Part shown: one piece after another, positions 5,924-30,037 of the stretch
How the letters are laid out: each line of letters starts with the position of its first letter
Numbering within the stretch: the first letter of the stretch is position 1
Assembly (NCBI GenBank): GCA_028715965.1
Contig: JAQUQS010000007.1
Location: 17,644-81,643, forward strand
DNA length: 64,000 nt
Source of the DNA: Candidatus Omnitrophota bacterium
Lineage (GTDB): Bacteria > Omnitrophota > Gorgyraeia > Tantalellales > Tantalellaceae
Direction: 5' to 3'
The notes under the pieces: generated by a model
The model's database searches: none
Told to the model about the DNA's origin: nothing
The model's input: only the letters and a program-made list of their open reading frames with translations
Translations under genes and position numbers: made by a program

Positions 5924-5934
5924 AATAAACTCAA

Positions 5935-6127: not shown

Positions 6128-6140
6128 GTTTAACAAAAAA

Positions 6141-6322: not shown

Positions 6323-6367
6323 GGCGCGCCTCGTTCTCTCGTATCTTGCGGAGAGGCAGGGATCCTG
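6323..6367. repeat. 45-bp perfect direct repeat, copy B
   Basis: Identical to 6037..6081. Confidence 0.9.
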
Positions 6368-6456
6368 TAAGCTTAACAAAGAAGCAAAGCACGGTTTCCT
6401 ACCTCTTTAATAGAAGGATCTTAGCCGTGTACGGCCTATCTCCCGCATTCTTATCC

Positions 6457-11581: not shown

Positions 11582-11796
11582 ATATATATTATAAATCCCG
11601 CGAATGAGTATACAAATAGAAATATGGGGACTGGTACTGCCAAAGCTTATGCTCCCGCTGATGTGCCTGTTCGTTCAGGGGGTTTCGCGACACTTCCTCA
11701 GACATTGCGTCTTCGGTCGTCCCCGTTAAAAACGAGGGACTGGTTCAGTCTTGAAAACAGTGACCGGGATACCTTGCAGAACAAAAACGGCATTGA

Positions 11797-12297
11797 TCAG
11801 GGTTTGCGCGCTATTATATCTTTCGAATAGATAACGATACCGTCATCGTTAGAATAGAAATCGTCGATAAGACCGACCTCGCGGAATCCCTGGCCAACAT
11901 AGAACCTGCGTGCCAACAGATATTCTTTGCGTGAAGATGTTTCGACCCTGATTATTGCCCGGGGGACCTCTTTGAACATTTTTTCTTCGGCTTTCGCCAA
12001 TAGCTTCTTTCCTAGTCCCGTCCCCTGGTGCGCCTTATCAACAACAAGCCAGTATATATCCCATCCGAAGTCCGTAAGCGGGGTACGGCCGAATATCAGG
12101 TATCCCACGAGTTTTCCATCTACTTCTTCGCTTATGACCCGGTAAGCGCTTTCCTTGGCGGTCAACATGTCCGAGATGATCTCTCCCAGGACAACTATCT
12201 CTTTTTCCCTGAAGACCCCTGTTTGGTGGGCCATTTTAACCATTTGTTCCGAACATGGTACAGTAGCTATCATATGCGTCTCATTTCCCGGGGACAA
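11797..12297 (-). CDS. GNAT family N-acetyltransferase
   Basis: QGTGLGKKLL acetyl-CoA binding motif. It is the last gene of the KamA operon. Confidence 0.8.
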   Translation of the reverse strand: MSPGNETHMIATVPCSEQMVKMAHQTGVFREKEIVVLGEIISDMLTAKESAYRVISEEVDGKLVGYLIFGRTPLTDFGWDIYWLVVDKAHQGTGLGKKLLAKAEEKMFKEVPRAIIRVETSSRKEYLLARRFYVGQGFREVGLIDDFYSNDDGIVIYSKDIIARKP

Positions 12298-13279
12298 GCC
12301 CCGCTCCTAATATGCCCTCTATAATATCCTCGTACTTGAGCCCTTTTGAATATCCTTGACGCGCGAACCCGCTGTCAGTATTTATATCCGGGTTCGGATT
12401 AACGTCGAGAACATACAGTTTCCCATCTCGTTCCCTGAGGTCTACCCGGAAATATCCCCTGCATCCAAGAGCGTTCGCCGCCTCCCGGCTGACCTCAATG
12501 ACCTTATCCCTCCATTTTCTATCGTCCGGAAGGAGTACTTCCGGCATAAGACGTTTATATTCCGGCGAATCCGCTTTCCATTTGGACGAAAAATTCAGGT
12601 ACTGTCCGCGTCCCTTGGTAGTGCCGTAATCAAGCATCGATACCCCGATAACATCATAGGGGTATTCCCCTGTAAATCCGGCGTTGAACTCTATCCCGGG
12701 TATGAACTCCTCGACCATAAGCCCGGCGGGGAAGCGTTCCAATTTATCCAGGACATAGCTTGCCATCTCTTCATCGTTATAAGCCAGTGACATGCGGTCT
12801 ATGCCTACGCTCGCGTCCTCGGATACCGGTTTGATGAACACCGGAAGATCCCCGGTAAAAGTCCCCAGGTCGCCAAATGTCCTGACGACCACTCCTTCGG
12901 GGACATCTATCCCGTGTTCGGCCAATATCTTTTTGGCACCCCCCTTGTCAAGACACGCCTCAAGCGCGCCAGATCCGTTACCCGTGAACGGTATCTTTTC
13001 CTCCTCCAGCATCTTCACGAACACTATCTCCTGGAAAGTATTATCGGAAAAACCTTCGAAAAGGTTGAAAACGCGATCGGGGGCATATTCCCGTATGTCC
13101 CGGACCAGTTTATATGGATCGCGTGAAAACTCCTTCTGTGTGACATCGAGATAAGATACGGCATATCCCCGCGCCTCAAGGGCTCCTTTAACCGAATTAC
13201 GGCACCGCAGGGCGTCCAGAGTATCTTCTCTGGGCACTTCGTCTATTCCGGCGGATATCATTATTTTTTTTGTTTTCAT
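12281..13279 (-). CDS. D-Ala-D-Ala ligase family ATP-grasp enzyme (paralog 2)
   Basis: Ddl-like motifs: PYTGS-like, KP..GSS.G, E.F.PG.E, RVD and DVNP.PG. An ATG at 13279 has an AAGG Shine-Dalgarno. The alternative is a GTG at 13312 forming a GTGA overlap with the upstream gene. Confidence 0.75.
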   Translation of the reverse strand: MKTKKIMISAGIDEVPREDTLDALRCRNSVKGALEARGYAVSYLDVTQKEFSRDPYKLVRDIREYAPDRVFNLFEGFSDNTFQEIVFVKMLEEEKIPFTGNGSGALEACLDKGGAKKILAEHGIDVPEGVVVRTFGDLGTFTGDLPVFIKPVSEDASVGIDRMSLAYNDEEMASYVLDKLERFPAGLMVEEFIPGIEFNAGFTGEYPYDVIGVSMLDYGTTKGRGQYLNFSSKWKADSPEYKRLMPEVLLPDDRKWRDKVIEVSREAANALGCRGYFRVDLRERDGKLYVLDVNPNPDINTDSGFARQGYSKGLKYEDIIEGILGAGLVPGK

Positions 13280-13308
13280 GGTAACCTTACGACATCCAGG
13301 GGCAGGGG

Positions 13309-14337
13309 TCACACGACGATACCCGAACGTTTCACCTCGGTCATGCGCGCGCCATAACGGGCAAGGGCTTCTTCCACTATCCTTTTTATGAGCTCTCCGT
13401 AACTCCTGCCGGCCATACGGATCATTATCACAAGATCGCTGTAATGTGGGGATAGCCCCGGCAGCGGATTAACATCTATTATCCTTGGGATACCCAAGGC
13501 ATCCACCCTGAGATCTATACGCGCTATATCCCTAAGAGATAACGCCTTGAAAGCCGCGGTCGCGTACTCCGCTATCTTCCTCCTCACTTCAGCGGCCACC
13601 GCGTCCTCCCCTTCATAGAGTATCTTTTTCTTCCAATCCCGCTTTTGTTCTATGGAATATATGAATCTGTCCCGGTTTTCCCGGGGAGATATCTTCATCA
13701 TGCCCAGAAGCTCCGGCACGTCATTCCCGGAGACCGCGGCTGTTATCTCACTTCCCGGCATATACTCCTCGACAAGCACAGGTTGTCCATATCGCCCAAG
13801 TATCCTTGAGGCTTTTTCCACCAGTTCCACGGGCCCCGAGGCGATAGAATCGTCAAAAATGCCCCGGGAAGAGCCTTCCCATCTGGGCTTGATGACCCAG
13901 TACCCCTCCTTCTCGATAGCCTGGCTTATCCGGGATATGTCCTCCCGGTCCCCGGCGCTGAATGCGCGAGGCACAGGTACGCCAGCCTGGTGAAGGACCA
14001 CATTTGTCAGGTATTTATCAAGCGTTATCCCAAGTGCGATAGGGTCCGATCCCGTGTACGGGATATCCAGGCTTTCCAGGATACACGGCACCTGGGATTC
14101 CCTGGACCTTGTGTGCCCGATACCTTCGGCGATATTGAAGACCATATCCGGCCTCTTCCTAATAAGCTCTGAGGCCAGGTCCTCCTTCTGGTCGAACAGG
14201 GTGACCTCAAAACCAAGAGCCTCTATCTCATCTTTTATCGCCAGGATAGTCTCTATCTCATCGTACTCTTCATGGAGATCGTCCGTTCTTGTCTTGTCCT
14301 TTAAGTTATAGACTATCCCGATAGAACGTATATTCAT
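13309..14337 (-). CDS. D-Ala-D-Ala ligase family ATP-grasp enzyme (paralog 1)
   Basis: PYTGSDP, KPRWEGSSRGI, EEYMPGSEIT, RIDLRVD and DVNPLPG match the Ddl fold. Confidence 0.8.
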   Translation of the reverse strand: MNIRSIGIVYNLKDKTRTDDLHEEYDEIETILAIKDEIEALGFEVTLFDQKEDLASELIRKRPDMVFNIAEGIGHTRSRESQVPCILESLDIPYTGSDPIALGITLDKYLTNVVLHQAGVPVPRAFSAGDREDISRISQAIEKEGYWVIKPRWEGSSRGIFDDSIASGPVELVEKASRILGRYGQPVLVEEYMPGSEITAAVSGNDVPELLGMMKISPRENRDRFIYSIEQKRDWKKKILYEGEDAVAAEVRRKIAEYATAAFKALSLRDIARIDLRVDALGIPRIIDVNPLPGLSPHYSDLVIMIRMAGRSYGELIKRIVEEALARYGARMTEVKRSGIVV

Positions 14338-14352
14338 CTCTTCCCTGTTCCT

Positions 14353-15489
14353 TTATGCCGGGTTGTGGTATTCGAACACCTCTTTGGCGTAATTGCGCAG
14401 AAAAAGGCTTTTGTCCGTTACCGAGACTATATAATTCGGCGCTATAGGTATCTTCCCCTTACCATCGACCCCATCAACAACGAACGTCGGAAGGCACATC
14501 CCGCTTGTATGCCCTCTCATACTATCCATTATTTCCATACCCTTGAACACGGATGTCCTGAAATGCGCGGCACCTACCACGGGATCACACTGGAACAGGT
14601 AATATGGCCGTACCCGTATACTCTGGAGTTTATGGCAAAGCTCCGTCATCACACCCGGATCATCATTGATACCCTTTAAAAGGACGGATTGGTTGCTCAT
14701 GGGCACACCCGTCATCTGTATCCGCCGGCACGCCTCGGTGGCCTCCCCTGTAACTTCACGCGGATGATTGAACTGCACGTTGATCCATAGTTTTGGATAT
14801 TTCGAGAATACAGCACAAAGCTCAGAGTCTATCCTGTTAGGGAGCACTACCGGGGCCCTCGTCCCGATGCGAACTACCTCTATGGTGCTTATGGCTGAAA
14901 CGGCCGAAAGTATATGTTCGATCTTTTCCGTAGATAAGGTCAGTGGATCCCCGCCTGAAACTATTATTTCCCTTATCTGTTCGTTCTCACGCACATAATT
15001 CAGCGCCTCGTCTATATCCTCAAGTGACGGTTCGGCCACGGCGCATCTCCATAACCTTTTGCGGGTACAATGGCGGCAGTACATGAAACATCTACCCGTC
15101 ACGAGCAAAAGGGCCCTGTCGGGATACCGGTGTATAAGGTACCTCGTCGCTTCCGTCTTAACTTCTCCGAGCGGGTCCATCTTGTCATGTTCCGAGTATT
15201 TGATCTCTTCGGGCGATGGCACACACTGCATATATATAGGATCTTTAGTGTCTTCTATGTTCTTTATCAATGAAAGGTAATACTTCGGTATCCTTAAATG
15301 GAAGAGTTTCGCTACTTTTCGCAGGGTTTCTTTCCTGCCCTTAAGTAATGGGATGTTCCTGGAAAGGTCATCAATATTCTTTATCGAGTTCGCATCTTCA
15401 TCCTGCCACGTACTTGTTGCGGCCTCGCATAACGTACCGGGAGGCTCGTCCATCTCCGCGGCCAGACACAAACCTGTTTCTTTTTCCAT
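14353..15489 (-). CDS. Lysine 2,3-aminomutase family radical SAM enzyme (KamA/AblA/EpmB-like)
   Basis: CFMYCRHCTRKR is the CxxxCxxC motif. YLIHRYPDRALLLVTGRC and the C-terminal PLP-binding region match KamA. Confidence 0.85.
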   Translation of the reverse strand: MEKETGLCLAAEMDEPPGTLCEAATSTWQDEDANSIKNIDDLSRNIPLLKGRKETLRKVAKLFHLRIPKYYLSLIKNIEDTKDPIYMQCVPSPEEIKYSEHDKMDPLGEVKTEATRYLIHRYPDRALLLVTGRCFMYCRHCTRKRLWRCAVAEPSLEDIDEALNYVRENEQIREIIVSGGDPLTLSTEKIEHILSAVSAISTIEVVRIGTRAPVVLPNRIDSELCAVFSKYPKLWINVQFNHPREVTGEATEACRRIQMTGVPMSNQSVLLKGINDDPGVMTELCHKLQSIRVRPYYLFQCDPVVGAAHFRTSVFKGMEIMDSMRGHTSGMCLPTFVVDGVDGKGKIPIAPNYIVSVTDKSLFLRNYAKEVFEYHNPA

Positions 15490-15844: not shown

Positions 15845-16014
15845 AAGTGGTGAGCCGCCTCGACGCGGAGGTCTCGGCACCCGCTCGCACATTTCGTGTT
15901 CGCTTGCCTTGGTCGCTCAGGGCTACAATGCTCCTACTCGTCTCATTGTCCACGCCCTTCTCGACACTTCCTCGGCCATTACGGCCTCGGTCGGACTCGG
16001 GGCTTTACATCTAA
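15845..16014 (+). repeat. Repeat family copy 1 (~170 bp), 5' end matches the tRNA-Lys 3' end
   Basis: aagtggtgagccgcctcgacgcggaggtctcgg...ctaaagcttattcc is nearly identical to 23754..23934 and 23997..24178. Confidence 0.9.
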
Positions 16015-16083
16015 AGCTTATTCCCACTCGTCCTCGCCTAAAACCTATAGATCCCGCCCGGCTAACACAGTGCCGGCGGATAT

Positions 16084-19000
16084 TTATTCACCGCATATAT
16101 ACTCTTCCCCCTTGAACGTATAGCCGGTAAATGTTGACCGGTTCTTAAGGATGGCGTTATATTTGGAGAGGATCTCGCTCTCACTGACGCTTCCGGATGG
16201 AGCATTTCTATCCTCTTTCCCGGCAAGATCAAGCGTACCGTTCTCGAATATGGCCACGATCCCGCCTTCAGTATCGTATTCGTAAATACTCAACAGATCC
16301 TCCGGATCCCTGTCGGTAGAGGAATACGCGTACACGAAGTGTAATGCCCCATCGTCCTCACCCTCATAATACTCGAATTCAAGCGCGCGTTCCCCTTTTG
16401 AATTGGCTTCCGCATACATCGTTGAAACAAGTATCTTCCCTGCCATATCATACTCGTAAACCGCTACAAGCTCATTCGAAGCACATGAAGTCGCGGAATA
16501 CGAAGAAACCCTGCTCGGCTGTATGGAATCCGCGTAATATTCGTACTTGAACGCGATCTCCCCCTTAGCGTTCGTTGCCTCAAGATGGGCTTCATCCGCC
16601 CTGGGCGCGCCCTGTGTATTCCAGGCCTGGTCGATATCCTCGTCGATGTAATGGTAATAGACCATCCCGCAAACATCTGCTTTCGGCATGGTCCGTGATT
16701 TCATGCGCTTTTCATTATCGGACGCCTCCGGGTTATAATATTCTGTGCTGCTTCCGTTCCAATCCCCGTTGTATCTTAAAAACCCCGAGAACACGGGATT
16801 ATGCGGATCCGTTACGTCGATATTTTCCCATTCCCATTGCCCGTAACGTTGATATTCATCGCCTATGACACTGTAGACATGCGCTATCCCGTCATAATAT
16901 TCCATTAACTCCCTGCCATATCCACGAAACTCCCAGTTCTCGTCAAGATAGTACTTTATAGAAGTATCCGGATCTTCTATATACGCTTTCATGAACCAGG
17001 ATTCCGGGTAATATACTATCTCCCATGATGTTTCTTCCGGCAGAAGCTGGCCTTCCTGATCGAACGTTTCGGTCACCACAGGGTTTGATAGTACGGGTAT
17101 GGAAGTATCCAGCTTATACTCAGCGGTATGATATCCTTTTCTTACGCTGACTATGTCCGTACCCTCATGGTATTCATACGTATACGCTTTCACTCCATAT
17201 TTATCGCCCGCTTTCAGTATGGATACGTCTATTCTACCCTCTTCATCGTAGTGAAAATAAACATAAGCCGGATCATCAAGATCTGGCCCCCTGACCGATT
17301 CTATCTCTCCTGTATCCGGATAATACGTGTACACTGTCCCGTAAAACCAGTCTTGCAGGGCCTGGTAATCCATCGCGTCAAGCGCGTTACCCTTATCATC
17401 CCAGAAAAGAAGCCCGTCATATCCGTGGTCGGCCAGTGTATCAAGTTTATTCGTCACATACGTCGGATCTATTTCCCCGCCTATAACAGGTTTCCCTTTC
17501 AGGTAATTGGGAGAGTAAAAATACTGCATCTTATCGTTCTTGTAACCGAACAGGTTGAGGCTCGCTTTGTCATAATCGGGGCTCTCCGTATTATCACCCT
17601 GCCAGTACTTGTAACTGTCATAATAATGGAACTGATAAAGATCAAGCACGCTCAGGTCCCCGTCGGCGCAAGCGTTATCGTAACTGACCCAGTACTTCAT
17701 CATCTCGGATTTTGTCAGACTGCCTACCGTGACCAGCGCTTCTGGATCTTTCTGGTGTATCATCGTCACGAATTTCCTCACGAATACCTGCATCTCTTCC
17801 ATCGTTACGCCTGTTATGTCCCCCAAATGCCCTTCACATGAGATCTCCGGCTCATTGATGACATCCCACGCGTATATGGCGTCATAATTGGCCAGTTTCA
17901 TGACCTCGTCGAAAAACCAGTCGAAATGAGCCAGCAAGACAGCCGTCGCGTTCTCGTCCTTTATAAGATCGACGTGCTCGTGGTCGGAAACACTTTCCAC
18001 GCCATCGGCCATCCTGTAATCGAATAATGTCGGGATAAGTTTTATGTTAAGTTCTTTCGCCGTATTCAAAAGCGTCTCCATGTCCTGTATGACGAAATCG
18101 GTGAACCCCGTAAAAGACCCGTTAGCGTCGAACATCATGCCGGCCCTCATATCGGCGAACAGGAACAACCTTACATATCCGTCTTTCCACTTTTCAAGGC
18201 CCGCCCTCAGTTCCTCATATCCCGTAAGGTTCTCCCATCCGCTTCGTCCCCTCGAATACCCGCTATGCCAGCCATCGACCGACCTTACTCCGATCCCTTC
18301 CCCGTAACGTATCCATGGCAGGTTACCCATGCCTATGAATTCCTTATCTCCGGCCGCGGCTACACGCTTTTCCAAAAGAGCGCCGTCTATCCTGTATGTC
18401 CTGGTTTCCAGCAAAGTATCCGTATCGCCGTCGTACTCAAAAACGGTATAGGACCCGTCCGGGAAAGTTTTTTTAATAAGACGTCCGTGCGCCTCATACG
18501 GTTCCGATAAAGGTAATGATATCAATAGCCCCTTTACGTCATCCTGGGTAAACCCGTTTTCCGGCAAAGCGTTAGCGTTGATATACGCGATAAGCTCTCT
18601 TATGCCCAATGTCCCGGGATCCACACCGATAAGGAAATCCTTCAGATCGCTGGGCTCATCGGCATAGTAAATAAGATCACTTAAAAACTGCCCAGCCTCT
18701 TTATCCGCGTAAAAAGCTTCGTCAGCATACTCATAAGTTATCTCCGTAGCCTCCTCCGCCTTAGTGAACTCACCTGCCTTTGTAGCGCACTCGAACCTGG
18801 TGTGTACTCTTCCCGAATCATAATACGTAAAAGGATATTCGGGGCCGGCGTGATCTGGCATGCCATAGGGGAAATGCGGAATGATCTCGTAAACGCTGAA
18901 GTTATCGAGATATACCTCATATAGCGTACCGGTAGTGATCTCTTCACCTGTCTCGAGCATGTTGGTCGCGGCTTCCCAGTCGATAGCGGTCTCTATATCG

Positions 19001-21885
19001 AGATCGCCGTCATACACATAGATCAGTCTCCTGGTCACCTGCGTACCGCATATTACGTCTTTAATAAAGACCGTTTCACCGTTCCCGCCAAAGACAAATG
19101 ATCCCCATGGACTTCCGTCCGGATCGCTTTCATAATAGCGCATGGTGAGTGAAGGTGAGCCGGAAGTCCCGAACACTTTCCTGTATACGGCGTTTTTTTG
19201 ATCATCTATGACCTTGACCGGCAAGAGCACACCCTCGATATATTCCCTGACGATACCCATTTCATCTCCCCCCAGATATTGCTTTTCCCTTACCAGGGTT
19301 CCCGCGGCATCGTAGAAATATTCATACGCCTTGACCAGTCCATCGACAACAGGCTGCTCCGGATCGCTATGATCTATGCTACTGTACAGTTTTTTCCGTT
19401 TGACGAGGTCCGAGCCGGGATAATACTCGTAAACATACCCCATAGCCCCTTCACTGTCGGCGAATATCCTCGCCGAAACATCAACGCGGCCCTGTCCCGA
19501 ACCAAGCCAGTCCTCGTTCATGTAATGATAGTATATGTTCCTGTTATCATCGGATCCCGTTAACGTCTTGGACCGCATCATTCCGGTATCGTTCCAATAT
19601 GTTGTTGTTGCTTTCAAGTACTTGAACTCGGGATTAGCGGGGTCGATCACATTGTCAGTCGGGCTGAAAAGTTCCAGTAGAGACACGTCACCATCCAGGA
19701 AATTCACGATATAAGCGTGCTGGTCACCCGGAGAGATGACCAGGTCTTTCGGGAGATCGCCAACGGGTATGTCCTGCACAAGTTTCGTATTAGTGGACAG
19801 GTCTATTACGGACACGCTATCACCGACGCCATTCGTCACATAAGCGTATTTCCCGTCCGCCGTGATCTCGATGCCTTCGGGCCCGTCTCCCACGGGAATA
19901 TCATTTGTCAGTTTTGTGCGGCTGGCAATATCTATCACCGATACCGTACCTGAATAGTTGTTCACGACGTATAAATAAGCCCCGTCCGGGGTGATCGCGC
20001 TATGACAGGGCCGGTCCCCCACGATAATATCTTCCGCGAGCTTAGTATTGGTGCTGAGATCGATCACCGACACACTGTCGCTACCTCCATTCGTCACATA
20101 GGCATATTCACCGGACGGATCGATCCTGATATGATATGGGGACGATCCTACTTCTATCGTTTTTATCTTTTGTTTCGCCTGAAGATCGACTACCGACACG
20201 GATCCGGCCAACCAATCCACCGTATAGCAATATCTGTCGTCTCCCGTCAACTCCATGGCCCAGGGGTACCTGCCCACCTGGATCGTTTCCGCCAGGACCT
20301 CGTCGTTCTCAAGATCTATTATTCCTATATAATCGTCCCTGCAACTCGTATAGTACGCATACCGCCCGTCACTGCTGATCTTTATGTCCCCGGGGTCCCG
20401 GCCGACATCAAGATCCTCTCCTACCTTTAGTTTTGTCGCCATATCGATCTTGGATATAGTGTTGGCCCCGTAATTCGTAACATACGCGAACCGTGAATCC
20501 GGCGTTATCTCAACGTAACAAGGTAAGTTCCCCATGCTGACATCCATATCGAGGTTCACATTAGTCAATATCTGCCCGCCGTGATAGGCATACGATGTTC
20601 GCGAAACGATCCTATCGGTAGCCCCGTCGTATTCGACCTCATACGCGACGGCCCCGTCGGCATCCGCCTCTTGCGCGACATATTTGTCCATCCTGCCGGA
20701 GGCCTCATTGATATAATGGTAATAGATGTTCCCGTTCTCATCGGGAGCCGAGAATGTTCTACTCTCGATAAACCCCGTATCGGAATAATATGTTACGCTT
20801 TCACCGTCTTTTTCCGTCTTTTCCAGCAATGGCTCATGGGTCGCGCCGGAAACATTCGCGTATTTATAGACCGTATATCCCGTTGGCGCATATGCCCGGG
20901 AGTATCCCTCCTTGATCAAGGCCCCGTTCTGCGAATAATACATATCCTTAATGAGTGCTCCATTTGCATCATATAATTCCACGATCCGGGGAACATCCGA
21001 CCCTTCCCAGAAGGATATGACCTTTTCGACAGAACCGTCCGCGAGAAAGGTCCTGATCACCCTTCCCTGCTGATGGCCATTGTAAGGTTCATCCGAATAT
21101 TCGTAACCTAAATGCCCTTTTGAGTTCGCTTTATCATAATATTTGCCGCTTATTCTTCCCGAAGGGTAATACTCTACGCGATAATTCCTTTCTCCGTTAT
21201 CATCGTAATATTCGGTATCTTGTTTTTTCCCCGTATTTCCGTCATATGTGAACTTGATCCGCTGTATACCTTTGAAATTGAAATATATCTTACTTGTCTT
21301 GAGTCCCTTCTCGTTAAAAGACTCTTTTTTGATCATCTGTCCTGAATGCGCGCTATAATATGTCCTGTCTTTCACGGTACCATTATCATGGTATCTTTCG
21401 CTATAAGATGCCTTGCCCGTCGAGGTGTTATAATACGTGACCTTCCGAGGCTTGCCGTTGTCATTAAATTCTATCCGTTTACACTTTTTCCCAAAATGAT
21501 CATAGCTATCCATCATGGAATAAAACCCGGTCACAAGATCATAATAAAACTCACTTGAAAGTCTTCCATTATTACCGTATTCCACTACGCGTATGCTCTT
21601 TCCATTTTCAGCGCGATAGACTATCCTGGTTCCACCTTTGCCTCTGATCCCGTATCTGGGAGACCACACGATCCTTCCCGCGTCATTATAATAATTGACC
21701 GACCGGGTTTTTGGCCCTAACTCCTGATACAAATATGTATAATAAAACCCCTGGAATAGACCGTACCAACCTGAATTGTACCTTTTAAATAGGTCAATAC
21801 TATCAGCCGATCCAAGACTGGTTATCAGCATTACGCTGACTACCATTAAAGCTATTAAGAGATTATGTTTTGGATATTTTCTCAT
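16084..21885 (-). CDS. Giant secreted/surface protein (1933 aa) with YD/RHS-like repeats, YVTN beta-propeller repeats and a GH5-like (clan GH-A) domain
   Basis: N-terminal signal/TM. Six or more ~40-aa repeats of YAYVTN...SVSVIDL. A segment containing WDVINEPE (the NEP catalytic motif of GH5). Many YY.D.G / Y.YD repeats. Confidence 0.8.
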   Translation of the reverse strand: MRKYPKHNLLIALMVVSVMLITSLGSADSIDLFKRYNSGWYGLFQGFYYTYLYQELGPKTRSVNYYNDAGRIVWSPRYGIRGKGGTRIVYRAENGKSIRVVEYGNNGRLSSEFYYDLVTGFYSMMDSYDHFGKKCKRIEFNDNGKPRKVTYYNTSTGKASYSERYHDNGTVKDRTYYSAHSGQMIKKESFNEKGLKTSKIYFNFKGIQRIKFTYDGNTGKKQDTEYYDDNGERNYRVEYYPSGRISGKYYDKANSKGHLGYEYSDEPYNGHQQGRVIRTFLADGSVEKVISFWEGSDVPRIVELYDANGALIKDMYYSQNGALIKEGYSRAYAPTGYTVYKYANVSGATHEPLLEKTEKDGESVTYYSDTGFIESRTFSAPDENGNIYYHYINEASGRMDKYVAQEADADGAVAYEVEYDGATDRIVSRTSYAYHGGQILTNVNLDMDVSMGNLPCYVEITPDSRFAYVTNYGANTISKIDMATKLKVGEDLDVGRDPGDIKISSDGRYAYYTSCRDDYIGIIDLENDEVLAETIQVGRYPWAMELTGDDRYCYTVDWLAGSVSVVDLQAKQKIKTIEVGSSPYHIRIDPSGEYAYVTNGGSDSVSVIDLSTNTKLAEDIIVGDRPCHSAITPDGAYLYVVNNYSGTVSVIDIASRTKLTNDIPVGDGPEGIEITADGKYAYVTNGVGDSVSVIDLSTNTKLVQDIPVGDLPKDLVISPGDQHAYIVNFLDGDVSLLELFSPTDNVIDPANPEFKYLKATTTYWNDTGMMRSKTLTGSDDNRNIYYHYMNEDWLGSGQGRVDVSARIFADSEGAMGYVYEYYPGSDLVKRKKLYSSIDHSDPEQPVVDGLVKAYEYFYDAAGTLVREKQYLGGDEMGIVREYIEGVLLPVKVIDDQKNAVYRKVFGTSGSPSLTMRYYESDPDGSPWGSFVFGGNGETVFIKDVICGTQVTRRLIYVYDGDLDIETAIDWEAATNMLETGEEITTGTLYEVYLDNFSVYEIIPHFPYGMPDHAGPEYPFTYYDSGRVHTRFECATKAGEFTKAEEATEITYEYADEAFYADKEAGQFLSDLIYYADEPSDLKDFLIGVDPGTLGIRELIAYINANALPENGFTQDDVKGLLISLPLSEPYEAHGRLIKKTFPDGSYTVFEYDGDTDTLLETRTYRIDGALLEKRVAAAGDKEFIGMGNLPWIRYGEGIGVRSVDGWHSGYSRGRSGWENLTGYEELRAGLEKWKDGYVRLFLFADMRAGMMFDANGSFTGFTDFVIQDMETLLNTAKELNIKLIPTLFDYRMADGVESVSDHEHVDLIKDENATAVLLAHFDWFFDEVMKLANYDAIYAWDVINEPEISCEGHLGDITGVTMEEMQVFVRKFVTMIHQKDPEALVTVGSLTKSEMMKYWVSYDNACADGDLSVLDLYQFHYYDSYKYWQGDNTESPDYDKASLNLFGYKNDKMQYFYSPNYLKGKPVIGGEIDPTYVTNKLDTLADHGYDGLLFWDDKGNALDAMDYQALQDWFYGTVYTYYPDTGEIESVRGPDLDDPAYVYFHYDEEGRIDVSILKAGDKYGVKAYTYEYHEGTDIVSVRKGYHTAEYKLDTSIPVLSNPVVTETFDQEGQLLPEETSWEIVYYPESWFMKAYIEDPDTSIKYYLDENWEFRGYGRELMEYYDGIAHVYSVIGDEYQRYGQWEWENIDVTDPHNPVFSGFLRYNGDWNGSSTEYYNPEASDNEKRMKSRTMPKADVCGMVYYHYIDEDIDQAWNTQGAPRADEAHLEATNAKGEIAFKYEYYADSIQPSRVSSYSATSCASNELVAVYEYDMAGKILVSTMYAEANSKGERALEFEYYEGEDDGALHFVYAYSSTDRDPEDLLSIYEYDTEGGIVAIFENGTLDLAGKEDRNAPSGSVSESEILSKYNAILKNRSTFTGYTFKGEEYICGE

Positions 21886-22184
21886 GACCGTTCTCCCGTC
21901 TATGTTATTTCCGTAAAACCACTTACAAAGTGTAAAATTTAGTACATTATTATATCACATTATCCTTCCATATCTTACTTTTTATTTTTACACTGTGCCG
22001 GTTTTATGCAGTTTTGCTTGAACTGTCTATCAGCATTGGACTTATGCTTATACGGAGCATGGGAACATGTAGACAAAAGAAGAAAAACGGACTCTATAAC
22101 CAAAGCGAAATAGGTTTGCGCTTGAAAGACGATTAAAAGCAGTGTAATACTCTATTTGGAAGTGGTACTACAGATGGGGTAAGG

Positions 22185-22565
22185 TCACTCCTTGCCATAA
22201 TATTTTTTAATTCTCTCTCTGTCCTCATTTCCCTTGTCACCTTTGAAATATACCTCAATAAACTCAATTTTATCTTCCTCTTTGAAGTAGGCGTAAATAA
22301 TTCTAATCCCGCTTTTTGCTCCTCTTCCCTTCAATGCCTTACAAGCAAACCTCTTCACCTTGTATATTTCAGGATATTCAATGCCGAGATTGGAGATCCT
22401 CTCTATACCATTTACTTCCTTACCCTTCTTATGTTTCAGTTTCAATGCAACCTTAATAAATGTCTCAATATCATCGTCGAGAGTTCTAAACCTCTTTTTT
22501 AGAGCTTTTAGATCTTTTGCGTACTCAGCAAGATGAACTATTTTATTAAAAATGCTATTCGGCAT
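22185..22565 (-). CDS. RelE/ParE-superfamily toxin (type II TA)
   Basis: 126 aa with the C-terminal IRIIYAYFKEEDKIEFIEVYFKGDK pattern. It overlaps the upstream HTH gene by 11 bp. Confidence 0.55.
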   Translation of the reverse strand: MPNSIFNKIVHLAEYAKDLKALKKRFRTLDDDIETFIKVALKLKHKKGKEVNGIERISNLGIEYPEIYKVKRFACKALKGRGAKSGIRIIYAYFKEEDKIEFIEVYFKGDKGNEDRERIKKYYGKE

Positions 22566-23340
22566 ATTCCCTCACCGAGTAAGGTGCCTTTCTATAGAAC
22601 ACGGATTCATACTCTATAATTTCACCATCCTCTGTAGATTCCCACGGAACATCACCATGTGAGTAGTCACTGATCTGCGTAGCATTCATATCAGATAACC
22701 TGCTATTCAATACATCGTCTATTGTTTCCTTTTCACGCGCGCTCAAAAGAGAAAGATCCGGCTTTCTCAAAGGTAAATACTTTTTCTGTAAATGCTGAAA
22801 ATATTTGTTCTGTACTTTTACCACCTCTTCATTCTCGATCATTTCTTCTACGATTTTTATAAATTCTTTTGGCGTCGGTCCATGATGATTTTTTATATAA
22901 GTAGCACCCATGAGCTGCTCCTCATATTTCTCGTAGAAATTAAAATCCATGAAATATAAAAGCTTGTACAAGACTGTTTCTCCAATATTGGGCTTAGATC
23001 CAACTTTTTCAAGGATATATATCAACACCTCTTTGAATTTTTTCAGATTTTTCTGGGGGACACTGATCCTTATTTCTTCTTTATGTTCTGCCTTCTTCAA
23101 ACTCTTCTCAAAAACAACTTCGATATCCTTTTTGATGTTCAGTAATACATCTGTAGGTATATTGAACACTTTAGCTACTTTAGTAATTTCCTCAGCACTA
23201 ATCTTTCTGTCTCCTGTCTCTATCTGAGAAACGGCCACTCTATTCACTCCAAGTTTTTTAGCTAACTCTTCCTGGGACAACCCCATTCTTTCTCTTATCT
23301 TTTTAATTTTTATCCCAAGATCTTTATAAAATCTATCCAT
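22555..23340 (-). CDS. HTH XRE-family regulator with C-terminal Panacea/DUF4065-like domain (antitoxin)
   Basis: N-terminal LSQEELAKKLGVNRVAVSQIETG helix-turn-helix. The C-terminal ~150 aa resembles phage-associated Panacea domains. Confidence 0.6.
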   Translation of the reverse strand: MDRFYKDLGIKIKKIRERMGLSQEELAKKLGVNRVAVSQIETGDRKISAEEITKVAKVFNIPTDVLLNIKKDIEVVFEKSLKKAEHKEEIRISVPQKNLKKFKEVLIYILEKVGSKPNIGETVLYKLLYFMDFNFYEKYEEQLMGATYIKNHHGPTPKEFIKIVEEMIENEEVVKVQNKYFQHLQKKYLPLRKPDLSLLSAREKETIDDVLNSRLSDMNATQISDYSHGDVPWESTEDGEIIEYESVFYRKAPYSVREYAE

Positions 23341-23556
23341 AAATTATACCCCCTTGTTATATTAAGTTTAACATATGTTGGTTTTTATGTCAATGCGTTG
23401 TTGTGTTATCTAACATACGACCGCCACACCACCCCCTTTTTGGGGTCTCGCCCGGGTGCGAGGCTAAAGGTCACACAACCTTAAGATAATATTCCCATCT
23501 GTTTCGCGTCAGACATTAGCTAACTATTATCTTACATATGGGGGAAGGAGGCCGTT

Positions 23557-23634
23557 ATGGGGTTTATGGTCGAGAAATTAGAGGAAATAGCTAAAATGTT
23601 AACGGGTCTAATAAAAAGTACCGACACTAAGTAA
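23557..23634 (+). CDS. Small ORF (25 aa) with strong RBS, hypothetical
   Basis: GGAAGGAGG lies 6 nt upstream of the ATG. It encodes MGFMVEKLEEIAKMLTGLIKSTDTK and is followed by a terminator hairpin at ~23720..23752. Confidence 0.3.
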   Translation: MGFMVEKLEEIAKMLTGLIKSTDTK

Positions 23635-23753
23635 GATTACTGATCAATATTCGTTAGTCGTTAGTCGACCGCATTCACGGCTACTTGCGGATCTCGACTT
23701 ACAAATGCTCTGTTAAATAAAAAACCAGGGGAGTGTACCCTGGTTTTTTATTT

Positions 23754-23996
23754 AACTGGTGAGCCGCCCTCGACGCGGAGGTCTCGGCACCCGCTCGCAC
23801 ATTTCGTGTTCGCTTGCCTTGGTCGCTCAGGGCTACAATGCTCCTACTCGTCTCATTGTCCACGCCCTTCTCGACACTTCCTCGGCCATTACGGCCTCGG
23901 TCGGACTCGGGGCTTTACATCTAAAGCTTATTCCCCTTCGCCTTCGTTATCTTACCATTAAAAAAGGAGACATCCTCTCGGAATGTCTCCTTTTTT
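23754..23996 (+). repeat. Repeat family copy 2 (243 bp unit including 3' terminator hairpin)
   Basis: It starts aactggtgagccgccc and ends with the hairpin aaaaaaggagacatcctctcggaatgtctcctttttt. Confidence 0.9.
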
Positions 23997-24240
23997 AAAG
24001 TGGTGAGCCGGCCTCGACGCGGAGGTCTCGGCGCCCGCTCGCACATTTTGTGTTCGCTTGCCTTGGTCGCTCAGGGCTACAATGCTCCTACTCGTCTCAT
24101 TGTCCACGCCCTTCTCGACACTTCCTCGGCCATTACGGCCTCGGTCGGACTCGGGGCTTTACATCTAAAGCTTATTCCCCTTCGCCTTCGTTATCTTACC
24201 ATTAAAAAAGGAGACATCCTCTCGGAATGTCTCCTTTTTT
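23997..24240 (+). repeat. Repeat family copy 3 (244 bp), tandem to copy 2
   Basis: Near-identical to copy 2 with a few substitutions. A fourth partial start aaagtggtgag follows at 24241. Confidence 0.9.
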
Positions 24241-24524
24241 AAAGTGGTGAGGGGGGCGGGGGTATAGGACCAATTTATCTCTCTTCTGAGGAGCTAATTA
24301 ACGGGTGTTTACTATACGGTTAAATGCCCCATTTAACGGGATTCCCTATATAGATGGCTATTCAGAGATATGTTTCGAGGTGAATATAGCTACTTCAAGA
24401 TGGACTCGAACTATTATTTTGTCCAATTTGTCCGGGGTTTAAGGATCTTGTTTACGATAACTTTATATCAATAAATGTGTTAGGTTGTGTCCAAGCTGTT
24501 TAGGCGGACATGGTAGGCCTTATC

Positions 24525-26007: not shown

Positions 26008-26466
26008 TTATGATTCTTTCAGATACAGTATCAACAAAAAAACCAAGGCTCCAACGACAACCCCGGCCCAAAACTTATCAATTTTTATTCTTTCGGCCAC
26101 ATTCTCAATGGCTTTATGTAATTTTTCCGGCGCCTGTTTAATATCAATTGCTTGGTGCCTATCTATCCATCCGGGTAATTCTTCGGGGCTTATGTCTATC
26201 AACAAAGGTACTATCGTTTTTTGCTGAACAAGCGCGCCGCCTAACTCTTGTTGCACTGCCTTGGAGTCGCAAGATATTTTTGACGCCAAGAAAAACACCC
26301 ACTTTGCTTCCCTTAACTTTTCAAATATCACCTCTGTCCATCTTTCTCCAGGCTCTATAGATATCCCTGCCATAAATGTCTCTATTCCTGCTCGAGTCAT
26401 AGCATAATGCAATTTTTCTGCCATCTCTTTATCTTCCACCGCATAACTGATAAAAGAATTAACCAT
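26008..26466 (-). CDS. TIR-domain protein with C-terminal transmembrane helix
   Basis: FISYAVEDKEMAEKL...AGIETFM...KWVFFLASKISCDSKAVQQELGGAL fits the bacterial TIR pattern with a putative catalytic Glu. The C-terminus FWAGVVVGALVFLLILYL is hydrophobic. The start was set at the Met preceded by an AAGGAGG Shine-Dalgarno. Confidence 0.7.
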   Translation of the reverse strand: MVNSFISYAVEDKEMAEKLHYAMTRAGIETFMAGISIEPGERWTEVIFEKLREAKWVFFLASKISCDSKAVQQELGGALVQQKTIVPLLIDISPEELPGWIDRHQAIDIKQAPEKLHKAIENVAERIKIDKFWAGVVVGALVFLLILYLKES

Positions 26467-26519
26467 CAATATCCTCCTTATTCTGAACACTATATATTGT
26501 ACCACTTTACATATAATTG

Positions 26520-28181
26520 TTACATACTCCGCAGGGAGTCCACCTTGGGAAGTGGCCATTGTGCCCTTGATGGCTCCTCAGGATATACATCCCAGGTATA
26601 AAGACAACAACCGCCCTTATAACTCTGCGCCAGAGTCACTGCCATCTCGAGAGCATCAGGACCATCATCGTGTCTTCCCTTCGGGTATTGCTTCAACTGC
26701 TCTAGTAGGGTTATATGCCGCCTCGAAAACTGCAGGGTTCCGCTCTTTATAAGCGGCTGGAGGGCTTCTATACGCTCATATTTATGGCTAGTGTGGTTGA
26801 CCCCTTCTATGCCTAGCCGTTGTTCATTAGCCTCGATCCGCTCTCGGAGATCGTCCAACATAAGAGCTTGAAACTGATTGCTCTCCACTCTAAATTTTTT
26901 ATACCCTCGCAAGTCATGATACTTAACAATAACACCTATGGTTTTATCCGGATGTAGCCTGTCAATGTGCGCATCCAGTACATACATCTTCTTGGTCTTC
27001 ATATCCTTGGCCACGGTAATGATCGCCGAAAAGTCCCCCTTGCGTTTACTGGTCCCCAGGCTTGGGTCACATGCACCGAAAAACAACGCATCTCCCTGGA
27101 ATGAGGCCAAGAGCTCCTCCTCGTTTTCAAATTTATCATCCCAGAAATGTATATCATCCAGATTAAAAATACAGTCCTTAGGATTGACGGGCTCATTTTG
27201 CATCTCGGCATCAAAGCTGACATGTCCCTCCTGCTCACGCATAACCATGAGCTCATAATATGATCTTCTCTCCGGCCACAGTACCTCCGTGCCCTTAAGC
27301 ATTTTTGATTTATAACGTTCAAAATATTGTTTGGCGGCTTCGGGGCCATATTCCCCTTTATACGACTCCCTGTTGTTGTAAATATGTGTCCATCTCTCCC
27401 ATCTTTTAGGACCGTCTGACCACTTAACAACAGCTCTATATACCTGTTTCCTCCATCCCGGATAAGCATCCTGGCTCGTAAACTGGGAAAGTAACGAATG
27501 ATAGTGATGTATGGTTCCTATTAGAACTATATTGGTCTCAGCGCTGCCCGCCTTAAAGACCGCGTTGGTCAAGGCACTCTGCAGCTTATCCATCACTTCG
27601 GGGTTAAGACAGGTGTCGTTATTTTCAACATCATCGGCAATAATAAGACTAGGTCTTATTTCCCGATTCCTTAATCCCCTAACCTGCTGACTTGCCCCTA
27701 AAGCCAGGATTTTAATGCCATTTTTCGTTATGATCTCCTTTCTCTGCCATTTAGCCGGAGTCGGCACTTTCCAATTTTCGCACACCTCAGGAAAATCCTC
27801 TAGCAGCCTCTCATTGTTCTCAATTTCACTTTTGATATTCTCGAGAAATGTCGCGGCCTGCTCCGAGGTGTTTGATACAATGAGAATAAATTTCTCGAGA
27901 TCATAACACACACAGTAAATAACATACTGAAGCGTTAATATGGTACTCTTGGCGCTTTCCCGGGGAGCAGCGATGGCCAGCTTAGACCCTCTATTGTCTT
28001 TGAGCTTTTGAAGATCCGCTGTAAACTCTGTCTGGAATGGACCATCTTTCAACTTGTTGTAATGTGAAAAATAATAGCTCCTAAAATCGGCAAAGTTTGT
28101 AAATTTCTCCCGCCTTTTCTTTATAAGTTCCGCCTGCATTAAAATTGTTATCTTATTTTTATTTATCTTTTTCATCTTCAT
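26520..28181 (-). CDS. Phage terminase large subunit (ATPase + nuclease)
   Basis: 553 aa with a Walker A-like APRESAKST motif and a C-terminal RNase H-like nuclease region. It overlaps the upstream small-subunit gene. Confidence 0.75.
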   Translation of the reverse strand: MKMKKINKNKITILMQAELIKKRREKFTNFADFRSYYFSHYNKLKDGPFQTEFTADLQKLKDNRGSKLAIAAPRESAKSTILTLQYVIYCVCYDLEKFILIVSNTSEQAATFLENIKSEIENNERLLEDFPEVCENWKVPTPAKWQRKEIITKNGIKILALGASQQVRGLRNREIRPSLIIADDVENNDTCLNPEVMDKLQSALTNAVFKAGSAETNIVLIGTIHHYHSLLSQFTSQDAYPGWRKQVYRAVVKWSDGPKRWERWTHIYNNRESYKGEYGPEAAKQYFERYKSKMLKGTEVLWPERRSYYELMVMREQEGHVSFDAEMQNEPVNPKDCIFNLDDIHFWDDKFENEEELLASFQGDALFFGACDPSLGTSKRKGDFSAIITVAKDMKTKKMYVLDAHIDRLHPDKTIGVIVKYHDLRGYKKFRVESNQFQALMLDDLRERIEANEQRLGIEGVNHTSHKYERIEALQPLIKSGTLQFSRRHITLLEQLKQYPKGRHDDGPDALEMAVTLAQSYKGGCCLYTWDVYPEEPSRAQWPLPKVDSLRSM

Positions 28182-28782
28182 CCTCCTTCATTAATATAGT
28201 TAACCCTTCTTTGATATCTGCCAGCTCTTCCTTCTCATCATCGCTCATGTAACTGCTAAGCTCTTCCATTTGCTTTTGTATAGATGCTATCTCCTCTTTG
28301 AGGCCATTAGTAGCATCCCCATGGTGATATATATCCCCCACCACTTTCTGTGGTGCCATGGGCATGTACCCAAGGGTTTGAAGCTTGGCGATGGTATCAA
28401 GTTCAAGGCGAGACGCATAATATATAGCTTGGGCTCTTTCACTTACAGAGGCTCCCTGTTGACGAGACAGTTTTATAAGATATTGAACATGTGACCTGGT
28501 ATTTTTAAGGAGTTCTCCAACCAACTGACATGCCAACTCCATATTGGGCACAATGGCGTTTTTTTGCCTGATCTCGTCCAAATCTCGCTTGATAGTTTTT
28601 TCACTTCTTCCAAGCAGTTTTGCCATTTGACTGTTTGAATATCCCTCGAGCTGCAGCGCCTCAACACACTCTTGCCGTTCTTCCTTAGACAAGGTAGCGG
28701 GGTTTATTTTGCCATCATGGATGTTTTGTATAATCCTCATAACAGGCTGTTCCTGTTTTTTCTGCGGTTTTTCTTTAGGCAT
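28159..28782 (-). CDS. Terminase small subunit-like HTH DNA-binding protein
   Basis: HTH at SNSQMAKLLGRSEKTIKRDL. It sits immediately upstream of the terminase large subunit. The start was set at MPKEKPQ with a G-rich Shine-Dalgarno. Confidence 0.55.
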   Translation of the reverse strand: MPKEKPQKKQEQPVMRIIQNIHDGKINPATLSKEERQECVEALQLEGYSNSQMAKLLGRSEKTIKRDLDEIRQKNAIVPNMELACQLVGELLKNTRSHVQYLIKLSRQQGASVSERAQAIYYASRLELDTIAKLQTLGYMPMAPQKVVGDIYHHGDATNGLKEEIASIQKQMEELSSYMSDDEKEELADIKEGLTILMKEDEDEKDK

Positions 28783-30037
28783 CTTCACCACCCCCTGAAT
28801 AGCGATCATACAGATCTTTAGCCACACTATCTGCCCCTGCATAGGCGATATATCGCCTAACTATGGCATCACAATATCGCGGGTCTATTTCAACTCCATA
28901 ACAGCGTCTTCCAAGAGACTCTGCCGCGATTAAAGTTGATCCGGATCCAAGAAATATATCCAAAACGATATCACCTCTGACGGAACTATTCTTGATGGCT
29001 CTCTGGGCAAGAGCGACAGGCTTCTGCGTGGGATGGATGTATGATTTTGTCAAATCGCGCTTTATCTGCCATACAGTTGACTCGTTAGCGGAGCCGAACC
29101 ATTTATGCGGACCGTTGCCTTCAAGCCAACCATAAAGGCAGAACTCGCTCTGCTGATTGTAGTCGCTATATCCGAGGGCAAAACTTTCCTTGACCCAGGT
29201 GATAACACAGGCTATATGGCATCCGACCCCTTGCAAGACCTTATGCATTAGACCGAACTGCTTATATCCATTCCACACATAAAAGGCGGCTCCTTCCGCC
29301 AGAGGCTTAATAGCTTCAGAAAATACACCCTTGAACCATTCATCATAGACTTCCTGATTCATAGCGTCAGCTTCTATCGGCTTCCATCTTCTTTCCCGTT
29401 TTGTTTTTGTGGGACGCAGGGTATCATCATAACCAACGTTGTATGGAGGATCAGTATGTAGCATTTCTGCGGCGGCACCATTAAGCAGCTTCTGATAAGT
29501 CCCGGGAACCAAAGCATCAGCGCAAATAAGCCTATGCTTCCCCAATTCCAAAATATCACCTGGCTTAGTGATGGGCTTTTTCTCTTCATCCATAAAGCTA
29601 TCAATGTCAGGATCTTCTTCTCCTGAGATGTTGAACTTGTCATAGAGCTGGCTGATCTCCGGCAAATCGAATCCTGTCAGGCTAATATCAATATCCGGTG
29701 TCTCCTCTATCTCCTTGAGAAGACTCGCCAACATTTCTTCATCCCATTTTCCAGTGATCTTATTAAGGGCTAGGTTAAGGGTCTTTTCTTTTTCTAAAGG
29801 AAGATCGACAACAACTACTTCTACAGATTCTACCCCCATCGCGATAAGAACCTTTAACCGTTGATGCCCTCCTATAATGTTTCCTGTTCGTTTATTCCAG
29901 ACAATGAGCTCCACACAACCAAACTCAGTTATACTGCGCTTGAGCTTTTCGTATTCCGGGTCTCCCGGCTTGAGGTCTTTGCGTGGGTTGTATCCGGCAG
30001 GCTTGAGCTTTTTGATCGGCACTTTTTGTATCTTCAT
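28775..30037 (-). CDS. ParB-like nuclease domain fused to DNA N6A/N4C methyltransferase
   Basis: N-terminal ParB/Srx fold with GGHQR. DPPY (motif IV) and C-terminal FLGSGST (motif I) indicate a beta-class amino methyltransferase. Confidence 0.8.
   Translation of the reverse strand: MKIQKVPIKKLKPAGYNPRKDLKPGDPEYEKLKRSITEFGCVELIVWNKRTGNIIGGHQRLKVLIAMGVESVEVVVVDLPLEKEKTLNLALNKITGKWDEEMLASLLKEIEETPDIDISLTGFDLPEISQLYDKFNISGEEDPDIDSFMDEEKKPITKPGDILELGKHRLICADALVPGTYQKLLNGAAAEMLHTDPPYNVGYDDTLRPTKTKRERRWKPIEADAMNQEVYDEWFKGVFSEAIKPLAEGAAFYVWNGYKQFGLMHKVLQGVGCHIACVITWVKESFALGYSDYNQQSEFCLYGWLEGNGPHKWFGSANESTVWQIKRDLTKSYIHPTQKPVALAQRAIKNSSVRGDIVLDIFLGSGSTLIAAESLGRRCYGVEIDPRYCDAIVRRYIAYAGADSVAKDLYDRYSGGGEDA

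Follow-up and report, generated by a model that had tools for sequence, protein, structure and literature searches.

A covarying repeat with copied tRNA ends lies behind several tRNA genes in an Omnitrophota subgroup: a candidate structured element of tRNA trailers

Why should a non-coding repeat carry a copy of the 3' end of a tRNA? The question is raised by a 64,000-nucleotide stretch of DNA from a Candidatus Omnitrophota bacterium (contig JAQUQS010000007.1, positions 17,644 to 81,643; hereafter the window), in which three copies of a repeat share a segment with the end of the tRNA-Lys(UUU) gene. The preliminary description of this DNA offered two answers: the copies could be attachment (att) scars left by successive islands at tRNA-Lys, or they could be a multicopy structured RNA with a tRNA-like end. 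Our best reading is that the repeats are a lineage-specific structured non-coding element of about 200 nt, which in a subgroup of the Omnitrophota resides downstream of tRNA genes, in their 3' trailers. The family recurs within the window and in metagenomes, its core covaries, its tails agree with the neighbouring tRNAs, and its units have been duplicated locally and are interleaved with genomic islands. The coordinates are collected in Table 1.

The three copies lie where they had been placed, in the same orientation as the tRNA end. Copies 2 and 3 stand in tandem with a period of 244 and are identical at 239 of 244 positions (98.0%). Copy 1 matches copy 2 at 169 of 171 positions (98.8%), and the likeness extends weakly to about 16045, giving 93.6% identity over 201 nt. 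With up to one mismatch allowed, TGGTGAGCCGCC occurs at four sites in the window (15848, 23757, 24001 and 48327), three in the copies and one at the tRNA, against a shuffle expectation of 0.14; none of 100 shuffles attained four. All of these sites share the strand of the tRNA-Lys end, so that copies and tRNA end are direct repeats with 12-16 nt in common. The shared segment had been taken for the 5' end of the repeat. Because tRNA-Lys is encoded on the minus strand, however, in the tRNA sense it is the 3' end of each copy (...GGCGGCTCACCA), and the tRNA 3' end GGCGGCTCACCA is the segment repeated at the terminus of each Lys unit. Read in this sense, every copy terminates in the acceptor 3' strand, the discriminator and CCA, with a hairpin carrying A/U runs behind it. 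The hairpins that flank the units agree with the earlier account and consist of GGAGACAT and ATGTCTCC between A6 and T6. A simple terminator scan misses this structure because its loop, 9 nt long as we read the sequence ourselves, is larger than the 3-8 nt that the scan allows. The plus-strand open reading frames (ORFs) at 23759-23998 and 24000-24242 were rejected as peptide-coding by inspection only, since the period, 244, is not divisible by three and the translation is of low complexity.

The units share an anatomy that is most easily followed in the tRNA sense. A terminator-like hairpin comes first and leads into a leader that is partly complementary to the tRNA end, a hairpin (P0), a 5-6-nt piece that matches the T-loop of the neighbouring tRNA (CGAGUC or CGAAUC) and a conserved core of about 93 nt. 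The tail then reproduces positions ~61-76 of the neighbouring tRNA, which comprise the T-stem 3' strand, the acceptor 3' strand, the discriminator and CCA, and the next hairpin follows. Within the core, hairpin 1 is closed by tandem G.A pairs (CC-GA-stem-GA-GG), an invariant motif, and the long hairpin is built of three parts, GCCG/CGGC, AGGGC/GCCCU and AAUCC/GGAUU. In unit Lys-3 these elements run from a hairpin with A/T runs (hairpin A) through a leader that includes TGGTAAG, a partial complement of the tail, to P0, the core (24062-24154), an extension in which a CC-GA-stem-GA-GG hairpin recurs and, at 24001-24012, the tail GCCGGCTCACCA.

The relatives of this genome indicate where the tandem pair sits. 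Their tRNA-Lys trailer begins with 'gtt...' and continues into a terminator, and in the window such a trailer comes after unit Lys-2, in the form of 'gtta' and terminator B (23715-23750). Units Lys-3 and Lys-2 therefore lie between the CCA of the tRNA and the ancestral trailer. Lys-1, the dispersed copy, is placed between the terminator hairpin of a 1933-aa ORF and the promoter region of a radical-SAM operon. We also observed that the tRNA 3' end recurs in inverted and partly degenerate form just past the terminator 3' of tRNA-Lys, at 23951-23957 of the window and in two relatives (L155 4690-4730 and L145 6700-6715). These pieces read TGGTGACC, ATGAGCCTTGGACTCGA and TGGTAAG, so that tRNA end, terminator and piece make up one long palindrome. 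A public metagenome-assembled genome (MAG) splits the two sides of the window over JAQTUB010000015.1 (GCA_028710465.1) and JAQTUB010000011.1, and the first of these contigs ends, by coordinate arithmetic, inside copy 3. Two short Logan contigs (L143 and L144) also end directly behind frr, and a practical consequence seems to be that MAG assemblies break up at these repeats or because of strain variation at tRNA-Lys. Metagenomes in which the organism is present include SRR22315506 and SRR22315508.

The first clue to a wider family was a 36-nt piece of the repeat with a diverged match at 11684-11719, in which the stem is altered on both sides (GGCC/GGCC to AGAC/GTCT). A covariance model of the core (R1) finds five core copies in the window, including two family members beyond the earlier list, Ser2 and m11k. 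Ser2 belongs to an array behind tRNA-Ser(UGA). The other unit of this array, Ser1 (5924-6127), is preceded by a terminator, and its ~150-nt unit ends in the 17-nt tRNA-Ser end TCCTACCTCCTCCGCCA. The same array holds a 45-nt block that is 100% identical at 6037-6081 and 6323-6367, and a truncated tail (CCTACCTCC) together with a partial copy of the core 3' part at 6410-6445. The diverged copy m11k precedes the archease start by 70 nt and lies where a 37-kb variable region, which begins at tRNA-Lys, comes to its other end. Its terminus reads ..GGCAGTACCA followed by GTCCCC and may be a decayed Lys tail; m11k could either affect expression of the archease-RtcB (RNA-ligase) operon or be a decayed unit of the Lys type. 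In the region 11582-11797 a 9-nt direct repeat, ACCAGTCCC, flanks this diverged core.

Outside the window, a first strict DNA pattern had no match in collections of genome contigs and of metagenome contigs. A degenerate pattern drawn from three variants matched 57 metagenome contigs. In about 22 of these the 13-nt gap, which the pattern leaves free, forms a perfect hairpin; the other matches, with 0-3 pairs in the gap, look like chance matches. The hairpin module is tandemly repeated inside one unit in L100. A scan of viral sequences returned one match inside a coding region, which was judged to be chance, and phage and plasmid collections contained nothing similar to the element. We also fetched 80 Omnitrophota loci via the radical-SAM gene; the operon is common to them, and the element was not found by blastn, nhmmer or the covariance model.

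An alignment of ten full cores, with four helices and 23 pairs, was used to examine the structure. In this alignment 94.7% of the cells are paired, and both sides have changed in 11 of the 23 pairs. None of 500 shuffles matched these values, and slid registers were only 27-44% paired. Hairpin 1 is found with at least six different complementary stems, and the core positions outside the helices do not vary between contigs. Counts of G.U against A.C were indecisive as to strand (7 versus 4); the tandem G.A motif is meaningful on the tRNA-sense strand alone. The suggestion of a multicopy structured RNA with a tRNA-like end is thus borne out in architecture, covariation and recurrence, on the strand opposite to that described. 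The proposed Rfam search yielded no family for the units in Rfam 15, at the gathering threshold or at E up to 10, and returned only tRNA, 6S RNA and group I intron. The repeats are therefore a candidate for a new structured RNA family, apparently undescribed until now. Two other structures were rejected. A tRNA-minihelix fold, considered for the last 40 nt of the Lys units, is the minimum free energy structure for copy 1, with energies no better than those of shuffles, and a tRNA pseudogene with an insertion is not supported by relaxed ARAGORN, which finds no tRNA in the units with the core kept or removed in silico.

The association with tRNA genes is specific. Each unit behind a recognisable tRNA is co-oriented with that tRNA, and the tails follow the cognate tRNA ends: in the window they match over 12-13 nt in the three Lys copies and over 17 nt behind tRNA-Ser(UGA). 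In related loci the matches extend over 15 nt plus 5 nt of trailer behind tRNA-Ser(GGA) (L107/L140), 20 nt behind tRNA-Met (L113), 17 nt behind tRNA-Lys (L161), and 16 and 20 nt in three consecutive units behind a tRNA that contains a group I intron (L094/L106). The unit behind tRNA-Ser(UGA) in L115 has a truncated tail identical to that in the window, and units also stand behind tRNA-Lys in L145 and L146. The flanks of the core also follow the cognate tRNA. To its left is the cognate T-loop piece (CGAGUC at both Lys loci, GAGU in L094, CGAAUC at the Ser loci) and to its right the cognate T-stem 3' strand, and the core therefore looks as if it were set into a copied tRNA 3' end near position 60/61, in a pattern that rests on a small number of independent cases (4 to 5). 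In the loci with the intron (L106 1555-2030 and L094 157-440) the tRNA gene is split by a group I intron (RF00028, 82.8 bits) and three tail-bearing units follow. An overlapping 112-aa ORF in L106 (1555-1893) is HNH-like by sequence inspection only.

Units stand at orthologous positions in different hosts. One lies behind tRNA-Ser(UGA) in both the window and L115, and others lie behind tRNA-Lys in the window, in L145 and, as a degenerate tandem, in L146. RtcB is only 70% identical between two of the host genomes, and frr is 72-76% identical in the relatives, so that neutral DNA should be unalignable. The core and terminator flanks of Ser2 are nevertheless about 85% identical to those in L115, compared with about 40% in the leader and P0. 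The Lys unit of the window and that of L145 have kept the leader, P0 and junctions, with the whole stem-loop of hairpin 1 exchanged. Turnover is visible at the same loci: L115 is without the 204-bp Ser1 segment, and L146 carries two identical 125-nt degenerate units behind tRNA-Lys. No U-run terminator lies between tRNA and units in L146, which speaks for co-transcription there. The units stand directly behind the tRNA, with no intervening island, in L145, L115 and L107.

We tentatively propose that the unit is active as RNA of the tRNA-sense strand, produced along with the tRNA or after it, and that the tail and the hairpin define a CCA-type 3' end; we would put the chances of this at a little short of even. 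The unit would be transcribed by read-through from the tRNA gene or together with it, like the E. coli rtT RNA, and the tRNA-like tail and the next hairpin would yield a 3' end of tRNA type that closes with CCA. Recombination at the repeated tRNA ends could lead to gain, loss and duplication of units, as in the 244-bp tandem pair and the 204-bp extra unit at tRNA-Ser. Genomic islands would enter at the same tRNA ends, leaving units and islands interleaved, and the 24-kb defence island between tRNA-Lys and the units would have arrived later via its large serine recombinase.

Several findings weigh against this proposal. There is no sigma-70-like promoter ahead of the units, and those of the window are set apart from the tRNA by hairpins with U-runs, so that transcription of the units is a presumption. 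The folding energies of whole units and of 3' domains are no better than those of shuffles. A helix closed by leader and tail was rejected, because a cross-pair RNAduplex test showed no consistent preference of a leader for its own tail. At L117, the sole exception to the agreement of tails, the unit behind tRNA-Leu has a tail that does not match. The distribution is patchy: R1 finds no copy in ~50 other Omnitrophota loci (856 kb in total) and no core in L150, L153, L155 or L157, and the closest relative, L161, combines an intact 17-nt Lys tail with a different scaffold. Short forms of the core without tails occur away from tRNAs, between the S8 and L6 genes, right before start codons and upstream of archease. 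Finally, truncated and nested pieces occur, a trait typical of selfish repeats.

These points lend weight to a serious rival to the RNA reading, in which the unit or its ~90-nt core is a non-autonomous mobile DNA element that inserts into or beside tRNA 3' ends. Such an element could resemble miniature inverted-repeat transposable elements (MITEs) or repetitive extragenic palindromic (REP) sequences, or be cis-mobilisable. Its hairpins would serve a trans-acting recombinase or transposase, perhaps on single-stranded DNA; the tail and the T-loop-like flank would be derived from the target, and any RNA function would be incidental. Mobility fits the presence of three independent copy lineages in 64 kb as against none in 856 kb of other Omnitrophota, and the tail-less copies in unrelated contexts. 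It also fits the indels bounded by tRNA ends (204 bp between the window and L115, tandem duplications in the window and L146) and the flanking of the core by the cognate T-loop piece on the left (GAGU for Lys and L094, GAAU for Ser) and the T-stem 3' strand on the right. A near-identical type of hairpin 1 appears beside Lys, Ser, Leu and other tails, copies may be truncated or nested, and the dispersed copy 1 has a tail plus 9 nt of unit-type trailer. No transposase or integrase adjoins any unit examined, however, and the units have neither sharp ends nor clear terminal inverted repeats, with a duplication length of 13 to 25 nt. At orthologous loci the leader and P0 are kept along with the core, so that insertion of the core only would need to recur at the same spot, and the invariant unpaired nucleotides of the core exceed the usual needs of hairpin recognition. 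We regard a mobile DNA element as less likely than an RNA, though still as a serious possibility.

The att-scar proposal has to be separated into the islands and the repeats. A genuine island does lie at 24253-48326: GC content is 0.383 over 24241-48326 compared with 0.51 in the flanks, the segment carries defence genes, and it is missing from the relatives L150, L145 and L161, whose tRNA-Lys loci were compared as had been proposed. A Pfam scan of the 16-48 kb segment, covering all ORFs from 120 aa upwards, found no tyrosine integrase (PF00589), as previously noted. The large serine recombinase is the sole recombinase there; it had been described as near the tRNA, and the ORF next to the tRNA encodes an AbiV-type HEPN protein instead. 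A 10-nt partial copy of the tRNA end, AAGTGGTGAG at 24243-24252, marks the left junction and has about 10 nt in common with the right junction at the tRNA. So short an identity fits insertion into the tRNA end by a serine recombinase, and does not fit the 170-245-bp repeats. The segment is probably a separate, later island, inserted at the tRNA end by its own large serine recombinase. The second proposed island (15845-23753) is island-like only in part. Its segment 21886-23753 has a low GC content (0.368) and carries toxin-antitoxin genes, and the 1933-aa gene has a near-core GC content (0.479) and no homologue in 80 related loci (tblastn, E up to 1e-10). L150 has frr and tRNA-Lys, then two genes, and then archease, RtcB and SerRS, with 3.3 kb from frr-tRNA-Lys to archease; the stretch of 37 kb that parts tRNA-Lys from archease in the window is therefore a variable region.

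The repeats themselves are not mere scars. We consider it very improbable that they are displaced tRNA 3' fragments together with the conserved P-arm of serial tyrosine-integrase islands at tRNA-Lys, whose integrases were later lost. In its favour, the direct repeats are of att-core size, and the literature documents accretion at tRNA genes well (Islander, PMC4383910; tycheposons, doi 10.1101/2020.12.28.424599). Bare fragments of tRNA ends do occur in arrays amid accessory genes in related contigs, as in L084 and L133, so that tRNA ends in this lineage are also classical island entry points. The pair frr-tRNA-Lys, kept in all relatives examined, is an island hot spot in relatives, which identifies one such site in Omnitrophota. 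The units nevertheless occur directly behind tRNAs with no island between, and an 'element' of 244 bp is too small for an island and contains no genes. Their stems covary, unlike protein-binding arm sites, the core in the Ser2-L115 pair has been kept far better than the sequence around it, and the ends of large islands here and in L133 are without unit-like sequence. The tyrosine integrase is missing not only from the window segment scanned but also near the units in L084, L133, L117, L134 and L140. Moreover, the core splits the T-loop-like piece from the tail, which a crossover region would not tolerate.

The least probable alternative, to which we give hardly any credence, is that the unit is a guide-type RNA, with a scaffold, a 13-17-nt 3' guide (tRNA positions ~61-76) and the universally conserved T-loop as adjacent motif, serving an RNA-guided nuclease, transposase or recombinase encoded elsewhere and acting at tRNA gene ends: the scaffold with a variable 3' segment (tails of 13-20 nt) and an immediate hairpin is an architectural resemblance only, the variable segment is the neighbouring tRNA end and begins right after the T-loop, and integrase-less islands accumulate at the same tRNA ends, but there is no TnpB, IscB, Cas12, IS110 or Tn7-type gene in the window or beside units (whose neighbours are the giant beta-propeller protein, toxin-antitoxin, frr, ribosomal protein genes and others) and no match to an Rfam guide-RNA family, the tails are sometimes truncated or degenerate at conserved loci, and a guide aimed at tRNA genes of the same cell would do damage if its protein partner could cut. 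Were it true, it would explain the stacked integrase-less islands and cassettes and the use of one scaffold with Lys, Ser, Met and other tails. What probability remains goes to roles in transcript processing or as an insulation signal.

Table 1. Features of the window. Positions are those of the 64,000-nt stretch; R1 is the covariance model of the core.
Feature	Position	Strand	Remarks
tRNA-Ser(UGA)	5836-5923	+	Upstream of Ser1/Ser2, co-oriented
tRNA-Ser trailer array	5924-6450	+	Ser1, terminator T1, Ser2, degenerate pieces
Core of unit Ser2	6218-6311	+	R1 96.9 bits; behind tRNA-Ser(UGA); first found by nhmmer at 6220-6299
SerRS, RtcB, archease	8.3-11.6 kb		Pfam
Core copy m11k	11666-11726	-	nhmmer E = 7.6e-13; R1 26.8 bits
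Radical-SAM operon	11797-15489	-	Lysine-2,3-aminomutase-like radical-SAM, two ATP-grasp ligases, GNAT acetyltransferase
Unit Lys-1 (copy 1), dispersed	15845-16045	-	Tail 15848-15859, core 15908-16000, P0 and diverged leader to ~16045
1933-aa ORF	16084-21885	-	YNCE/lactonase-type beta-propeller repeats; flanked by Lys-2 and Lys-1
Low-GC segment between units 2 and 1	21886-23753	-	HTH-SocA/Panacea antitoxin gene 22555-23340 and 126-aa partner 22185-22565
Unit Lys-2 (copy 2)	23754-23996	-	Hairpin A 23960-23996, leader 23937-23959, P0 23909-23936, core 23818-23910, extension 23770-23817, tail 23757-23769
Unit Lys-3 (copy 3)	23997-24240	-	Reads 24240 to 23997; R1 99.1 bits
Partial tRNA-end copy (..CTCACCACTT)	24241-24252	-	Island left junction
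Low-GC defence island	24253-48326		24 kb, between tRNA-Lys and units; Pfam
TIR protein	26008-26559		Island gene
Terminase-like protein	26520-28181		Island gene
ParB-N6/N4 methylase	28775-30037		Island gene
PD-(D/E)XK + RNase-H-like protein	32164-33660		Island gene
AAA_15 ATPase	33657-35513		Island gene, adjoining the preceding one
DUF2130; type I restriction-modification system; several ORFs without Pfam match			Island genes
Large serine recombinase	44729-46075	+	Resolvase, Recombinase and Zn-ribbon domains (Pfam)
AbiV-type HEPN protein	46433-47953	-	ORF nearest tRNA-Lys within the island
tRNA-Lys(UUU)	48327-48402	-	ARAGORN; Rfam tRNA 61.2 bits
frr	48411-48977		Directly upstream of tRNA-Lys
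6S RNA gene	56170-56325	-	Rfam RF00013, 61.8 bits

Among the neighbouring genes, a pair of like architecture to that between units 2 and 1 (HTH-SocA/Panacea with a 126-aa ORF) lies ~1.7 kb from tRNA-Lys in L155. The radical-SAM operon is syntenic in ~50 Omnitrophota MAGs and has a near-consensus sigma-70 promoter at 15637-15610. Its product may be a beta-lysine-derived compound.

Three kinds of known system bear comparison with the family. The att fragments of tRNA islands (Islander elements, tycheposons, and the accretion of integrative and conjugative elements and cis-mobilisable elements) resemble it in that direct repeats of a tRNA 3' end bound segments downstream of the tRNA, new material stacks beside the tRNA, and remnants without integrases are left behind. 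Unlike these fragments, the Omnitrophota units are 200-250 bp long, non-coding, structured and covarying, and they also occur free of islands; the only island that is intact here probably depends on a large serine recombinase and has ~10 nt of junction identity. REP sequences and the bacterial interspersed mosaic elements made of them, pneumococcal BOX elements and Correia-type MITEs are likewise present in many intergenic copies per lineage, with modular hairpins, compensatory changes that keep the structure and copies inside operons. They differ in that the Omnitrophota family is linked to tRNA trailers with a copied end, has long invariant single strands, and shows no REP-associated tyrosine transposase (RAYT) or other transposase.

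The closest analogue is the set of 178-bp repeats at tyrT/tyrV of E. coli (rttR, RF00391, with the tpr ORF). To our knowledge, trailer repeats that copy a tRNA 3' end have been known from this single E. coli locus since the late 1970s and were never explained. Read directly from NC_000913, tyrV-rttR has three 178-bp units, each of which ends in the 19-nt tRNA-Tyr end AATCCTTCCCCCACCACCA including CCA. As in the Omnitrophota, the units lie directly downstream of a tRNA gene, co-oriented with it and in tandem, and each copied tRNA end is followed by the same trailer sequence. We also noted that at this locus (L141, 1286300-1288000) GGGGAAGGAT in each tyrT-distal unit is the exact reverse complement of ATCCTTCCCC in the copied tRNA-Tyr end, so that, judged by eye only, each E. 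coli unit could form a helix of acceptor/T-stem type that encloses a large insert. In the literature (Bosl and Kersten 1991, listed in PMC11623569; doi 10.1101/2024.07.17.603846), RtT RNA is reported to be a processed transcript of the operon at this locus and may affect the stringent response.

The two systems are analogous and not homologous. RF00391 has no match in the window at the gathering threshold, nor over 23650-24450 at E up to 10, and homology was rejected from the other side as well, since R1 gives at most 9 bits on the E. coli locus. The units of the window are separated by terminator-like hairpins, unlike those of rtT, and the Omnitrophota family stands behind several tRNAs and also away from tRNAs, with a core supported by covariation. 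We therefore see here an rtT-like architecture that evolved independently in an uncultivated phylum. New in comparison with rtT are the association with several different tRNAs, the conserved, covarying, RNA-like core and the arrays interleaved with defence islands. Together, the two systems provide a comparative handle on why tRNA trailers carry mimics of tRNA ends.

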